Below, one piece after another: positions 47,029 through 52,887 of a DNA stretch of 64,000 bases (positions within the stretch are counted from its first letter, which is position 1; each line of letters opens with the position of its first letter). Made by a program: the position numbers and the translations under genes. Source of the stretch: Escherichia phage EPFV3-03/2025; sequence record PV435126.1. One strand, 5' to 3'. The notes under the pieces were generated by a model. That model worked only from the letters and a program-made list of their open reading frames with translations. It was not told where the DNA came from and made no database searches.

Positions 47029-47379
47029 TCAGTAGATGTTTTGTTTAATCTCTATTCCAAACTTTTTAAACGAGTCAGCAGCAAGCATGAATTTACGAGC
47101 CGCTGATGGGTTAGAAGTATGCACGAAAATCTTCACGTTGTCAACTACAGGAGGCTTACCAAATACAAATTTTTCTTCCAGCATAGATAGGCAATCGTAC
47201 CCTTCAAATACCTCTCCAAGGTCGTTGTCCATGTGCCACTCAGAAACGCGCCTGTAGAGCTTTCCCTTATCGTTAATAAAATCAATAAACTCAGAGGAAT
47301 TCTTTAGCCAAAGAGCATCTGGGAGCCCATAATTTGACGGATCTCTCAAGTCATCCAGCCACACAATCAACTTCTTCAT
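47029..47379 (-). CDS. hypothetical protein (116 aa)
   Basis: Coupled between RNA ligase and Sir2-like genes. Confidence 0.5.
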   Translation of the reverse strand: MKKLIVWLDDLRDPSNYGLPDALWLKNSSEFIDFINDKGKLYRRVSEWHMDNDLGEVFEGYDCLSMLEEKFVFGKPPVVDNVKIFVHTSNPSAARKFMLAADSFKKFGIEIKQNIY

Positions 47380-48311
47380 TGCATATAGTCCTCGTTGTGG
47401 AAATAGCAGTCAAGTATCTCACGGCGTTCCTGCTCCAGGAGGCAATTCCACACATCTTCTGTGTAGTTTCTACGAATGAAGTTTACCATGCCGTAAAACT
47501 CTTCGTCAACACGTTTAAAGATATCATCATCCCAAATCTTCCAAGCTCTACCCCTCATTACGACCTTCCGTGCCAGATAGTAGGGAGACTTGATCTTTAG
47601 TTGCAGGTCATAAGGGTAGTAAGACTTACGGATCATATACCCTTCGCCCCTTGTTTCTGCAGCCAACTCTTTTGCATAGCTGAACGGAATTTCACGCACA
47701 GTGTGAGGACGTTTTGCACCAAGGTATTTGGCAATACCGTCTAAAGCTGCTTCTGGTAGCATTATTCCAGAATCATTGTATCGGCAACCGATCAAATAGG
47801 CACCATGATCTTCCTGAACAATATGCGGGTCTGAAGGGTGACAAATTTCAAACATGAATGTCATGTTTTCATGGCCCATAACCTTCTTGATAAGATCTAA
47901 ATTACCACATTGCTCCTGGATTGTTTCCTTTGCGAGGTTACAATATGGAGAATCAAGAGACCCTGTTGTTGAGAACAACAGTTCACCTTTGTGAGATGAT
48001 ACCACACCAAGGAATCCGTTCTTTTTCTCTACCGCCGTCACAAGTTTATTGTCAGGCAGGTTGGTGGAATTTTCTCCCAAGTTAAATACTTTTGTGAAGG
48101 GCCATGCCACAACATTTCCTTCATTACCGACAACAATTCCTCGGCACTCTAGTAAACGCGGAGACAAATGCCATAGATTGTTGTAAAATACTTTTCTGGC
48201 ATATTTATAGATCTTTAACCCAAGATCTGGATAATACCGACTGGTTACAAGACCTTTATCCACTAAATCATCTGCATTAAAATACTTCATCATACATTCC
48301 TCGTTTGTCAT
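47376..48311 (-). CDS. ATP-dependent RNA ligase (nucleotidyltransferase ligase without OB domain)
   Basis: Motif I EKKNG, motif IV EGYMIRK, motif V LKIKS; divergent from PNK kinase/phosphatase genes. Confidence 0.55.
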   Translation of the reverse strand: MTNEECMMKYFNADDLVDKGLVTSRYYPDLGLKIYKYARKVFYNNLWHLSPRLLECRGIVVGNEGNVVAWPFTKVFNLGENSTNLPDNKLVTAVEKKNGFLGVVSSHKGELLFSTTGSLDSPYCNLAKETIQEQCGNLDLIKKVMGHENMTFMFEICHPSDPHIVQEDHGAYLIGCRYNDSGIMLPEAALDGIAKYLGAKRPHTVREIPFSYAKELAAETRGEGYMIRKSYYPYDLQLKIKSPYYLARKVVMRGRAWKIWDDDIFKRVDEEFYGMVNFIRRNYTEDVWNCLLEQERREILDCYFHNEDYMQ

Positions 48312-48411
48312 TTTGTCACTCTATCTTGCCACACAAATAAACTAGTGTCAACACTTGAAATGAACAAAAGAGTTATGTATACTACCATTAAAATTAAAAC
48401 GGAGGATTACT

Positions 48412-48822
48412 ATGTCTAAAATGCTGTATATCGTGCGTGGTCTACCAGGTTCTGGCAAATCAACACTGGCAAATGCACTATCTTTAGAGGGGCTGTACCC
48501 ACATTTTGAGAACGACATGTTCTGGTACGACGACGATGGAAATTACAACTGGGATGCAAGTAAAGTAACACTTGCAGCAAAATGGTGCAAAGATAACGTA
48601 GAAGATATGATGCGTATGGGATACGACCGTGTCGTGGTAAGTAATACGTTTACAAAAGAAAAACATGTGCAAGAATATGTTGACATGGCAATCAGTCATG
48701 GGTATAGTTATACTGTGATCGTGGTTGAAAACCGCCACGGTAATAAGAGCATTCATGATGTTCCAGATAGGGTTGTGGACCGTATGGAGCGTGAGCTTAA
48801 AAACTGCATTAAACTAAAATGA
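48412..48822 (+). CDS. polynucleotide 5'-kinase-like P-loop kinase
   Basis: Walker A VRGLPGSGKSTLA resembles T4 Pnk kinase domain; no fused phosphatase. Confidence 0.6.
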   Translation: MSKMLYIVRGLPGSGKSTLANALSLEGLYPHFENDMFWYDDDGNYNWDASKVTLAAKWCKDNVEDMMRMGYDRVVVSNTFTKEKHVQEYVDMAISHGYSYTVIVVENRHGNKSIHDVPDRVVDRMERELKNCIKLK

Positions 48823-48829
48823 GGGATGT

Positions 48830-49384
48830 ATGAAATATTTTGTAACAAGCGATACACACTTTCTCCACCAGCGAGTCATGGAGTTTGATTCATGTCAAAA
48901 ACACAGATCTCAGTATGATCACAATCTTGACAGTATGAACGAAGGAATCATTGCAGAGTGGAACTCTGTTGTATCACCAGAAGACACTGTGTTTCACTTG
49001 GGCGATATTGCATGCACTAAGGATAAGAATATCAACAACTTATTTCCAGATATTCTAAATATGTTGAACGGACATATTATTCTTGTTCGTGGTAACCATG
49101 ACACAAGGACGACTGTCAGAATTATGAAAGAGTTCGGTCATGAGGTTGTAGATTATTACGAGCTTCGCCACAACAAGAATTTGATCTGTATGAGCCATTA
49201 CCAGTTTGCAAAGTGGAACAGAAAGCCTCACGGATCAGTCCAACTGTTCGGTCATGCTCACGGAACCACACAGCAGTTGTTTGGCAGGCAGTTTGATGTC
49301 GGTTGGGATGTGTGGGGGAGACTCTTACCATTAGAAGAGGCATACCGTATTGCAATGAGTCTTGCTATTGACAGCGGGGAGTAA
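48830..49384 (+). CDS. calcineurin-like metallophosphoesterase
   Basis: SDTHF (DxH), GDIACTKD, GNHD, GHAHG motifs. Confidence 0.7.
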   Translation: MKYFVTSDTHFLHQRVMEFDSCQKHRSQYDHNLDSMNEGIIAEWNSVVSPEDTVFHLGDIACTKDKNINNLFPDILNMLNGHIILVRGNHDTRTTVRIMKEFGHEVVDYYELRHNKNLICMSHYQFAKWNRKPHGSVQLFGHAHGTTQQLFGRQFDVGWDVWGRLLPLEEAYRIAMSLAIDSGE

Positions 49385-49431
49385 TCCCTGCTATTTTAAA
49401 GAAAATTGCCACACAAGGAGAATCAGGAGAT

Positions 49432-49782
49432 ATGAAAGAGGAGGATAAGCTGCCATACCTTAAAGTCCCATTTGGAATACTGTCTATGTCAAAAGTTTTG
49501 AATGATACAACTGGAGAGGTTGTTGTTCTTGACTTGTATGACAAGATCGTATACTGCTACCTGCACAACTGGTATAAGCTTGGAGGAAATTCACGCTTCA
49601 CACCCAGCACAAGGAAAATTGCAGCAGATGTTGGGATAAAGAAAACAAAAGCAGCAGCGTGCGTTAAAACTTTAGAATGTGCAGGCGTGGTTGAAATATC
49701 CACACAAGGGAGAGGTAAAAGATGCACATTTTCCAAAGTTTTGCCACCAGAAGAGGTTATTCGAATGTCAACAACTGGTTAG
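49432..49782 (+). CDS. putative winged-helix DNA-binding protein
   Basis: 116-aa ORF; wHTH-like segment STRKIAADVGIKKTKAAACVKTLECAGVVE; directly upstream of iterons. Confidence 0.45.
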   Translation: MKEEDKLPYLKVPFGILSMSKVLNDTTGEVVVLDLYDKIVYCYLHNWYKLGGNSRFTPSTRKIAADVGIKKTKAAACVKTLECAGVVEISTQGRGKRCTFSKVLPPEEVIRMSTTG

Positions 49783-49857
49783 ACCAGTAAAAACTTAAAT
49801 ATCTGTACTATAAGGATTCGTATGTTTTATGTCCATCCAAGAGCAGAGGGTAGTAAC

Positions 49858-49945
49858 TGTCCGTAATACGGACACTACTGCCCGTCACGCGGACACATCT
49901 GCCCGTAATACGGACACTAACTGTCCGCAATACGGACACATAAAG
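49858..49945. repeat. four tandem iterons of about 21-22 bp, each with palindrome CCGTAATACGG + ACAC
   Basis: TCCGTAATACGGACACTACTG / CCCGTCACGCGGACACATCTG / CCCGTAATACGGACACTAACTG / TCCGCAATACGGACACATAAAG. Confidence 0.8.
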
Positions 49946-50443
49946 AATATAACTAAAATAACTAAATAATAAAAAATAAAAGATCTAGTACTTATGGTAC
50001 TAAAGTACATATACTTAACTTATGTAGAATATACTAGATCCTAAGTACCATGTTTTAAATTTATTACTTACTATTGGTAGTGTCGGCCCTTCATTGGCAC
50101 TCGCCTACGAGGGGCGAGATGCCGGGCCTCCATAGTGCACACAATAACAGGAGTGCATACATGCAGGACTGTTAACATGTGTGGGAGCGAAGCGATAGCG
50201 CAGGCCAAAGGCCGAGCACTAATGTGGACCACCGACGAAAGCTTGCCAGCGCCGTAAGGAGTCGGTTGAGAGCCTCCCGCGAGAGTTTAGTTAAAGTTTA
50301 TGTGTGGAAACGGACAGGAAGGCCCCTAAATCGCCACACAGCTGCGTAAACTATACCAAGTAAGGCAATCGCACCAGTTTGATAGAAAAGCTCGTTACAA
50401 AGCGATACAGTGAGTTTTTCTATAACTTGAAGAGGAGGCAGTT

Positions 50444-51022
50444 ATGAGTTCACGCAAAGATGACCGCGAAAAGATTGCAAAACGTTATCAGAATGAAGAA
50501 CAGATGGAGAAAACTTTCAAGTGGAAGCCAGGTTTCCAGCGTAATCATTCTAACGCTCGTGATCGTAAGCATCCGGATAAGTGGCTAACACCGCCAAATG
50601 ATGGCATGCAGGTTGGTGATGAGAAGGAGCTATCGCCTGGAAAAGATGGCAACTACATTCGCACTAAGGACGCTGGTCCAAAGGATGACAGCTATCTTGT
50701 AGATAAGGTTCTTGATGGTATTGATGTAGATGTTGACACCACACGGAACTTTTTTCTTGGGTGGTATCGCACAGGTTTTTTCGACATCAAGGCCATTCGT
50801 CGTGTTTGTGATATTAAAAAGTCTGCATATGATGACGACTCGTTACATCGCACCCTGAGGCAATATTCAGAAAGATATGGTCATCCGGTTATCACTCTTG
50901 ACGATGTTGACGAAGTGATGTATCATGCAGAGGTTGTTGCAGGCAGATTTGGTGATGCATATCTTGATATCCTTTCTGCAAACGATGAGGTAATGTTGAA
51001 TAAGATTTACTACGAACGTTGA
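50444..51022 (+). CDS. hypothetical protein (192 aa)
   Basis: ORF with GAGGAGG RBS. Confidence 0.55.
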   Translation: MSSRKDDREKIAKRYQNEEQMEKTFKWKPGFQRNHSNARDRKHPDKWLTPPNDGMQVGDEKELSPGKDGNYIRTKDAGPKDDSYLVDKVLDGIDVDVDTTRNFFLGWYRTGFFDIKAIRRVCDIKKSAYDDDSLHRTLRQYSERYGHPVITLDDVDEVMYHAEVVAGRFGDAYLDILSANDEVMLNKIYYER

Positions 51023-51032
51023 GGAGAGCTTA

Positions 51033-51221
51033 ATGAACAATCCGGTAGCAAAGAACTGTAATAAGTTCAACAAGTCTGCAATTCACACTGACAGGAAAAA
51101 GAGCTGGTCACCGGACATTGACGAGGAGCTTGAGAATTACTTTGAAGATCTGGTTACCAATGCAGGTGAGGTTGCGATTAAAGAATACGCAGACAGGAGG
51201 GATAAGGCCGGAATCTGTTGA
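51033..51221 (+). CDS. hypothetical protein (62 aa)
   Basis: ORF with GAGGAG RBS. Confidence 0.45.
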   Translation: MNNPVAKNCNKFNKSAIHTDRKKSWSPDIDEELENYFEDLVTNAGEVAIKEYADRRDKAGIC

Positions 51222-51540: not shown

Positions 51541-51884
51541 GGTTGTTTTCGTGTATCATGATGAATATCCAATTTAAAGATGAATTTGATGGCTTTATCT
51601 CCGGATGCTTTGAAACAGGGTTCGGAGAATGCTGAGTTCCCCTTAGAGGGCTTGATAGTGCACCACACTTAAAATGGTAGGGGCAGCCAGCACATGACGA
51701 TGTGACCCCAGCCAACCTGTAATAAGGTCGAGCCAAAGCGCGGTAATGGGTCTCTGGTAACCCACTTGTTGGGTCTTGTGGTCCAGGACGCTGGGCAAGT
51801 CGCAGGGAATACCACCCTGCGGCGAACTTGACAATCAGTATTTGCCGTGATAAAATCCACCTATCACGTGATAATGGAGGAAAC

Positions 51885-52223
51885 ATGGCGGATACAACTA
51901 AAAAGCGTCGCCGTAGAGGCAGACCTCTGAAAGAGGAGTCCAACGCCATTCAGCTAGAGAAGAACATTCTTGATATGAAGGAATCTTTTATAGCGATGGT
52001 TCCAGAAGCTCACAAAGTTTTAAGAGAGCTGATGTTGGATCCGAAAACCAAGCAAAATATTCGTCAAAGCATTGCAGAGTATGTCCTTGATAAGGCAGAC
52101 CGAATGCAGGAAGAATATGATGAGATGTTTGGTGAAGAGGAAGAGGTAGTAGTAGAAGAGGCTGAAAAACCAGCACCTTTTATGCCATTTACCACAGAGA
52201 TACAGCCTGTTGGCAATAGTTAA
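51885..52223 (+). CDS. hypothetical DNA-binding protein with basic AT-hook-like N-terminus
   Basis: ATG 51885 with GGAGGAAAC RBS and TTGACA promoter-like site upstream; KKRRRRGRP then acidic tail; small terminase is one possibility. Confidence 0.4.
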   Translation: MADTTKKRRRRGRPLKEESNAIQLEKNILDMKESFIAMVPEAHKVLRELMLDPKTKQNIRQSIAEYVLDKADRMQEEYDEMFGEEEEVVVEEAEKPAPFMPFTTEIQPVGNS

Positions 52224-52788: not shown

Positions 52789-52887
52789 GCTAGGTAAGCC
52801 CTTTGGCAAGGGCGAGGATTTTTAATCCTGAAAATAGACGAGGTAGTCGTTGAATACATAGGTGGTTCGATTCCATCACCTAGCACC
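52789..52887 (+). tRNA. atypical tRNA-like gene (possible anticodon TTT) with about 30-nt insertion before T-arm
   Basis: Perfect 7-bp acceptor GCTAGGT/ACCTAGC, D-arm GCCC-TTTGGCAA-GGGC, T-arm GGTGG-TTCGATT-CCATC, but 4-bp anticodon stem and over-long variable region; CCA not fully encoded. Confidence 0.45.

Follow-up and report, generated by a model that had tools for sequence, protein, structure and literature searches.

A candidate iteron-type replication origin beside a winged-helix gene in rV5-like coliphages

Escherichia phage EPFV3-03/2025 (sequence record PV435126.1) is a Vequintavirus, that is, an rV5/FV3-like coliphage. The stretch of its genome analysed here, a window of 64,000 nucleotides, carries a module made up of a gene for a small winged-helix protein, four palindromic repeats (iterons) and an AT-rich tract (Table 1). 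We propose that this module, about 700 bp in size, is the vegetative replication origin of the Vequintavirus (rV5-like) phages and that it is of the iteron type. The reading is supported by computation only, and we assign it a probability of roughly 0.6. It draws on the anatomy of the locus, which is unique in the genome and well conserved, on protein homology, and on finding the same arrangement again in initiator genes from other viral contigs. A preliminary description of the sequence had seen in these putative binding sites and the neighbouring unwinding element the layout of either a replication origin or a partition (centromere) site. The analysis favours the origin layout, given the homology of the protein to Vibrio cholerae PLE RepA, the viral loci in which the elements follow in the same order, the uniqueness and meltability of the locus in the genome of a close relative, phage SYGMH1, and the signs of purifying selection.

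Phages of the rV5 type are commonly isolated and serve in phage therapy and in the biocontrol of E. coli strains, O157 among them. In the rV5 genome paper a skew analysis was attempted and proved inseparable from transcription, and the origin was left undefined (PMC3606486). Our literature search returned no paper linking Vequintavirus with iterons or naming an origin for the genus. The label 'replication initiation' is already attached to the protein in RefSeq and PHROGs; what is new here is that this label and the repeats are connected as an origin, which provides one precise candidate for the undefined origin of this phage group.

The iteron array, the AT-rich tract and their conservation

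Using Tandem Repeats Finder, an array was detected at 49856-49939 with a period of 21 bp and 4.0 copies. Its score of 103 is the highest among the 19 arrays of the 64-kb window, the runner-up scoring 56. The copies lie at 49854-49875, 49875-49896, 49896-49917 and 49918-49939, with a spacing of 21/21/22 bp, and the first core begins at 49858, downstream of the stop codon of the winged-helix gene (49780-49782). When at most one mismatch is allowed, CCGNNANNCGGACAC occurs four times in the window and always within the array; shuffled sequences would be expected to hold 0.36 occurrences, and none of 100 shuffles reached four. Each unit contains a 17-bp dyad, TG(T/C)CCG-N5-CGGACA, with 6-bp arms, and in all four repeats the palindrome is followed by ACAC. 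The repeat finder and the shuffles thus uphold the four tandem repeats with ACAC that had been noted earlier, but the same palindrome is not present in each of them: CCGTAATACGG is exact in repeats 1 and 3, while repeat 2 reads CCGTCACGCGG and repeat 4 reads CCGCAATACGG. The dyad centres of repeats 1-4 are TAATA, CACGC, TAATA and CAATA, so the arms converge on TAATA/CAATA in three repeats and on CACGC in one, and the centre is A/T-rich and not a poly-A tract. A few GenBank records list these repeats as a repeat_region without interpretation.

A 46-amino-acid open reading frame (ORF; 49829-49969) crosses the iterons (...VRNTDTTARHADTSARNTD...) and mirrors the iteron-encoded peptide repeats in the initiator gene of viral contig L016, described below. 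Some records list it as a hypothetical protein; it is probably not a real gene.

The AT-rich sequence of about 130 bp that had been described after the repeats is the tract at 49940-50075. With a GC content of 18-19%, it has the lowest duplex stability in the window on scales of 40, 80 and 120 bp. Two inverted repeats within it, at 49982-49990/50032-50040 (GATCTAGTA/TACTAGATC) and 49994-50001/50044-50051 (ATGGTACT/AGTACCAT), are invariant among the relatives. The further palindromes which the preliminary description had reported here do exist, but the single-stranded tract is not predicted to fold more stably than shuffled sequences (z = -0.39), and on their own the palindromes are therefore not above chance. 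Each arm of the 9-bp inverted repeat holds a GATC (49982-49985 and 50037-50040), and adenine methyltransferases are encoded by the phage according to the annotation of SYGMH1.

Over positions 49300-50500 the closest relative is Escherichia phage vB_EcoM_SYGMH1 (99.2% identity), and 117 more Vequintavirus records, among them rV5 and FV3, are 92-98% identical. The suggested comparison of iteron conservation was made across nine relatives. Pairwise identity was 96.4% for the iterons and 96.9% for the AT-rich tract, in which 90% of columns are invariant, as against 89.9% at third codon positions of the adjacent gene. By this measure conservation is about three times as strong in the iterons and the AT-rich tract as at synonymous sites or in the spacer that separates the gene from the array, and, as judged from these alignments, array and tract are under purifying selection. 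The number of repeats is three, four (in most relatives) or six, and it changes in whole 21-bp units with the register kept: in phage V18, with three repeats, one 21-bp unit spanning repeats 2/3 is missing, and in O157 typing phage 14, with six, the repeat 2-3 pair is duplicated.

The locus also stands out at the scale of a whole genome. In SYGMH1 (137,423 bp) only four sites have two or fewer mismatches in the 12 arm bases, all of them within the array, and the tract adjoining the array is the least stable 40-, 80- and 120-bp segment genome-wide.

The winged-helix protein and the recurrence of the core in other genomes

The ORF upstream of the array had been described as a small putative winged-helix gene, and both Pfam and AlphaFold agree with this assignment. 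In Pfam the 116-amino-acid product matches DUF6945 (4.6e-6, 27.1 bits against a cut-off of 28) and HTH_36 (6.5e-5, 23.1 bits against a cut-off of 25); Phage_rep_O is unmatched. PHROGs places it in phrog_12838, 'replication initiation protein', and weak matches to phrog_8102, phrog_428 and phrog_270 carry the same annotation. In GenBank the label is mostly 'putative transcriptional regulator', and in RefSeq it is 'replication initiation protein' (rV5 gp075). Among 50,697 phage records the protein was found in Vequintavirus alone, where the gene is intact in 118 of 118 records with a protein identity of at least 89.7%.

Remote homologues of the protein were recovered to a degree that depended on the search: a word-indexed search returned close relatives only, a full HMMER scan gave 11 hits, and a profile search gave nine useful remote homologues of 153-195 amino acids with about 30% identity. 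When the alignment of these homologues was supplied, AlphaFold predicted a helix/helix/helix/wing topology with a pLDDT of 75 (38 from the single sequence). In this model the protein ends at residue 116, just past the wing, and would consist of one domain with a single winged helix. A C-terminal extension is retained by the more distant homologues; its acidic tail ends in PF or PWEx. At three of the homologues' loci (L009, L010 and L012) only two or three short repeats were seen beside AT-rich DNA, in the upstream intergenic region; as support for an origin these repeats are suggestive but too weak to count.

Acidic or aromatic tails (...EPF, ...PPF, ...PPWEA, ...RLVPF) were observed in the remote homologues P0014 and P0016-P0023 and in small array-bearing initiators, namely the 133-amino-acid ORFs of loci L019, L020 and L024. 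They are reminiscent of the C-terminal partner-binding tails found in SSB and in T7 replication proteins; the 116-amino-acid protein carries no such tail.

Comparison with known structures points to replication initiators. The protein family matches PDB 4RO3, the DNA-binding, N-terminal domain of V. cholerae PLE RepA, with E=4e-11, and in Foldseek ranks 3-7 are taken by N-terminal domains of staphylococcal plasmid RepA initiators, an iteron complex included (TM 0.55-0.56). The 116-amino-acid protein thus has the N-terminal DNA-binding domain of the RepA_N/DnaD-N fold.

The IMG/VR collection was scanned for two adjacent cores, using a pattern derived from the array of the source phage itself. 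This yielded 18 viral contigs of 29-70% GC, which fall into six groups by iteron centre and protein sequence. All 18 carry 2-7 cores spaced 20-25 bp apart, and in every one of them an ORF encloses the array, directly 3' of the segment coding for its N-terminal winged helix. In nearly all, a 40-bp window that ranks among the most AT-rich at its locus is found directly downstream of the array in gene orientation. When seven representative ORFs were searched, Pfam found Phage_rep_O in one and HTH_36 in two, and six belonged to PHROG families annotated 'replication initiation protein' or 'replication initiation O-like'. The ORF of contig L016 matches a generic HTH Pfam family only and no PHROG family. 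This contig, at 70% GC, holds both core variants of the source phage, TGTCCGCAATACGGACA and TGTCCGCCACGCGGACA. Aligned by hhalign with the winged helices of the array-bearing initiators, the phage protein family gave a probability of 93.9% (E = 1.5e-7); the link to the O-like/HTH_36 winged helices is one of remote homology, not of family-level identity.

The core was also found in bacteria, with arrays in myxobacterial genomes among the loci. In Burkholderiales (L048, L056, L063 and L066) two TGTCCG-N5-CGGACA sites with a spacing of 20 bp precede the gene of a periplasmic binding protein. Kofleriaceae genomes (L037, L043, L049 and others) have intergenic arrays of 3-5 copies in several places, with no detectable winged-helix initiator.

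Proposed mechanism and rival explanations

The steps that we infer for this module are binding, bending, unwinding and helicase entry, together with a direction of replication. The 116-amino-acid protein would be made early, from its own sigma-70-type promoter, and its dimers would bind the four dyad-symmetric cores. Since the cores are 21-22 bp apart, which is about two helical turns, the dimers would sit on one face of the DNA and would be able to bend or wrap it. This bending or wrapping would stress the adjoining 136-bp AT-rich tract, the tract would open, and phage helicases would enter the bubble. Two helicases whose genes lie elsewhere in the genome are candidates: a T7 gp4-like primase-helicase, and a PIF1/RecD-type SF1B helicase of the kind that rV5 encodes (PMC3606486). 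Because the protein has no domain beyond the DNA-binding one, entry of the helicase would be brought about by restructuring of the origin and not by a recruiting domain, and recruitment through a C-terminal domain in the style of lambda O is excluded. Between the winged-helix gene and 50444 the + strand has no predicted terminator-like site, so early transcription would cross the iterons and the AT-rich tract, and such read-through may aid helicase entry. The SF1B helicase may likewise aid entry, by analogy with the SF1B dependence of PLE replication (PMC7145576).

Several observations weigh against the origin reading. The protein consists of a DNA-binding domain only, and the characterised initiators of the families with which it was compared all carry a further domain. 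Its DUF6945 and HTH_36 scores fall slightly below the curated cut-offs, and Pfam RepA_N (PF06970) is unmatched at E values up to 1. The cumulative GC skew of SYGMH1 reaches its global minimum at 100,077, 1.5 kb from the iterons, but skew here tracks the direction of transcription and is not independently readable (see also PMC3606486); since the minimum coincides with a divergent gene switch, it is consistent with an origin and is not independent evidence for one. The set of viral contigs is conditional on the array from which the search pattern was taken. Moreover, the L016 protein, which has the most similar iterons, shows no similarity to the 116-amino-acid protein by BLASTP or hhalign, so co-inheritance of protein and iterons is not demonstrable. 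The scan of bacterial genomes for two adjacent cores gave 41 loci, of which eight overlap a detectable winged-helix ORF, and some of the others are two-site intergenic elements upstream of transporter genes. Because the palindrome occurs in bacteria in other contexts, it is not diagnostic alone and is limited as a signature; what counts as evidence is that array, initiator gene and AT-rich DNA occur together.

The main rival, which we regard as unlikely, is that the array is an operator. The 116-amino-acid protein would then be a repressor, an activator or a roadblock without a role in replication, acting on read-through into the GC-rich element, the tRNAs and the lysis and structural genes, or on a leftward promoter-like site (TGGACA-17-TATAGT, 49835-49807) that lies in the spacer and abuts iteron 1. 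The contact between this site and the array would suit an operator, as would the label given to the protein in most GenBank records, its lack of any domain but the DNA-binding one, and the position of the array, which has an early promoter on one side, a long rightward operon on the other and no predicted terminator. The bacterial two-site intergenic palindromes upstream of transporter genes also look regulatory. However, a scan for the sigma-70 consensus only predicted no promoter on the + strand from 49398 to 50897, the 137-kb SYGMH1 genome has a single cluster of sites, and an operator does not need a near-invariant flank that is the least stable segment of the genome. In the 18 viral contigs the iterons are inside initiator-like coding sequence, where an operator role is implausible, and the closest characterised homologue of the protein is a replication initiator (PMC7145576). 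Since initiators often autoregulate, a regulatory effect would in any case be compatible with an origin.

A second alternative, which we consider very unlikely, is that the locus is what remains of a decayed O-like initiator gene: an ancestral gene with a winged helix, internal iterons and a C-terminal domain would have been interrupted by a stop codon, and the phage would now initiate replication elsewhere, for example by a recombination-dependent or transcript-primed route. In all 18 viral contigs the iterons lie inside an intact initiator-like ORF, whereas here the ORF stops 72 bp before them and has no C-terminal domain. The more distant homologues do have a C-terminal extension, and the reading frame that crosses the iterons gives VRNTD...RHAD..., like the L016 initiator. 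Decay is hard to reconcile with a gene that is intact in every record, with iterons and a tract about three times better conserved than the spacer or synonymous sites, and with a repeat number that varies while the register is kept. A tblastn search with six initiators against 49400-51100 found iteron-level matches only, and no remnant of an initiator C-terminal domain was detectable downstream.

Hardly credible, finally, is a partition (centromere-like) or packaging (pac) site, bound by a centromere-binding protein or a small terminase: in-phase repeats beside the gene of a small DNA-binding protein would also fit ParR/parC-type centromeres, and the large terminase gene lies downstream in a circularly permuted genome with headful packaging (PMC3606486), but the neighbouring genes (AAA_33 kinase-type, metallophosphoesterase and RNA ligase) include no ParA/ParM-type NTPase, no such product is annotated in the whole SYGMH1 genome, the phage is lytic, tRNA and lysis genes lie between the locus and the terminase gene, and the homologues of the protein are initiators, not ParR or small terminases.

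Beyond the origin reading itself, we put forward tentatively, and with more doubt than confidence, a joint proposal: that the 116-amino-acid protein is a minimal initiator without a recruiting domain, and that TGTCCG-N5-CGGACA is an iteron code shared across phyla. The helicase would enter by restructuring of the origin beside an exceptionally long unwinding element, perhaps with an SF1B helicase as proposed for PLE, and winged-helix initiators that have diverged widely (HTH_36, Phage_rep_O and unclassified ones) would use the core in contigs of 29-70% GC. Should the locus prove to be the origin, a DNA-binding domain of the RepA_N/O-like kind would be able to work without a C-terminal domain, which bears on how RepA_N proteins start replication. 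The recurring palindromic core could also be a simple signature for finding origins in uncultured phage genomes.

Genomic setting and likeness to known systems

A divergent gene switch at 48311/48412 is found 1.1 kb to the left of the module, which opens a long rightward unit of tRNA genes, lysis genes and the terminase gene, the large terminase gene being about 4 kb downstream. The site homologous to the predicted promoter is annotated as P76 in rV5. Coordinates of the features are given in Table 1.

Table 1. Elements of the candidate origin and adjoining features, in window positions
Feature	Position	Strand	Remarks
Sigma-70-like promoter	49368..49397	+	TTGACA-18-TATTTT, with TG; 10/12 matches; upstream of winged-helix gene
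Gene for 116-aa single-domain winged-helix protein (rV5 gp075)	49432..49782	+	Putative iteron-binding initiator, DNA-binding domain only
Variable spacer, stop codon to first iteron	49783..49853		88.2% pairwise identity, 9 relatives; least conserved module part
Iteron 1 core	49858..49874		TGTCCGTAATACGGACA
Iteron 2 core	49879..49895		TGCCCGTCACGCGGACA; variant centre CACGC
Iteron 3 core	49900..49916		TGCCCGTAATACGGACA
Iteron 4 core	49922..49938		TGTCCGCAATACGGACA; identical 17-mer in iteron array of 70%-GC contig L016
AT-rich tract, putative DNA-unwinding element	49940..50075		136 bp, 18-19% GC against window mean of 42.7%
Conserved non-coding GC-rich element	50076..50440	+	365 bp, 53-56% GC, AT-rich tract to next gene

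The GC-rich element that follows the AT-rich tract shows 95% pairwise identity among relatives, with 18 nt of one hairpin missing in rV5, and some records annotate small hypothetical ORFs within it. Its predicted RNA fold is more stable than that of shuffled sequences (z = -3.67); it matched no Rfam family, and no compensatory pairs were found among 12 relatives. The element may be a structured RNA or a GC boundary, and its membership of the origin is uncertain. A second GC-rich stretch (52-56%) without a convincing gene lies at 51560-51830, upstream of an ORF ending at 52223; the minus-strand 142-amino-acid ORF over it looks spurious, and the stretch may be another structured RNA. Further downstream, at 52789-52887, ARAGORN reports a 99-nt 'tRNA-???' with a four-base anticodon, atcc, which scores 35.5 bits as an Rfam tRNA. 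The homologous place is annotated as tRNA-Lys in the BASEL record and is unannotated in rV5 and FV3, and the sequence may be an intron-containing or otherwise unusual tRNA.

On its other side the winged-helix gene adjoins an RNA-repair-like set at 47376-49384, consisting of an RNA ligase, an AAA_33 polynucleotide-kinase-like protein and a metallophosphoesterase. In contig L009 of an uncultured phage (7657-8950), AAA_33 and T4-type RNA ligase genes likewise come after a remote winged-helix homologue.

Across the locus, 18 GenBank entries that bear the name 'Campylobacter phage' (for example MG065646, MG065652 and MG065672) share about 95% identity with rV5-like phages of E. coli. Campylobacter jejuni is given as the host in 16 of the 18, and the identity suggests that the records are mislabelled or contaminant assemblies. 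One of the 'Campylobacter phage' records, A141, begins exactly at the first iteron.

Among known origins, ori-lambda has its winged-helix coding segment, iterons and AT-rich DNA inside the O gene. The phage module resembles it in the order of these three elements and in its four (in relatives three to six) dyad-symmetric iterons, which are in helical phase. Here too an AT-rich unwinding region adjoins the iterons on the side away from the winged helix and is followed by short inverted repeats, and transcription from an early promoter would read through the origin. Unlike in lambda, and unlike in all 18 comparison contigs, the candidate origin lies 72 bp past the stop codon and not inside the initiator gene. 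The AT-rich tract is about three times longer than that of lambda, and the C-terminal domain by which lambda O binds the P helicase loader is absent.

Rep_3-type iteron plasmid Rep proteins, which have two winged helices and act with DnaA boxes, were considered as a model and rejected. The phage protein has a single winged helix, and no cluster of DnaA boxes was found at the locus, where a single box with one mismatch lies at 49696, inside the gene.

PLE RepA, placed in the RepA_N family by its structure (Barth et al., Nucleic Acids Res 2020, PMC7145576), binds semi-palindromic iterons in electrophoretic mobility shift assays, and PLE replication requires RepA as well as the iterons (PMC7145576). 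As in PLE, the iterons of the phage lie in a non-coding region (PMC7145576), and the SF1B helicase on which PLE depends (PMC7145576) has a counterpart in the PIF1/RecD-type enzyme encoded by rV5-like phages (PMC3606486). PLE RepA differs in having a C-terminal domain, the phage protein corresponding to the N-terminal domain only. As far as can be judged, the iteron sequences of the two systems are not related. Whereas PLE is a satellite on the replisome of its helper phage, the module would be the phage's own origin.

The next best structural match of the protein in Foldseek is to the N-terminal dimer-forming winged helix of the staphylococcal RepA_N initiators of pSK41 and pTZ2162 (PDB 4PQL, 4PT7, 5KBJ and 4PTA). 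These initiators have directly repeated iterons with inverted sub-repeats that converge on an A-rich centre (PMC7145576), to which TGTCCG-TAATA-CGGACA bears some resemblance. Unlike these initiators the phage protein does not match Pfam RepA_N and has no lineage-specific C-terminal domain, and the origin would belong to a phage rather than a plasmid. Two defining features of the compared systems are therefore absent, the C-terminal domain of both families and the location of the origin inside the gene that marks the lambda type. The module otherwise resembles ori-lambda and RepA_N origins, and it offers a possible natural example of a domain-minimal initiator.

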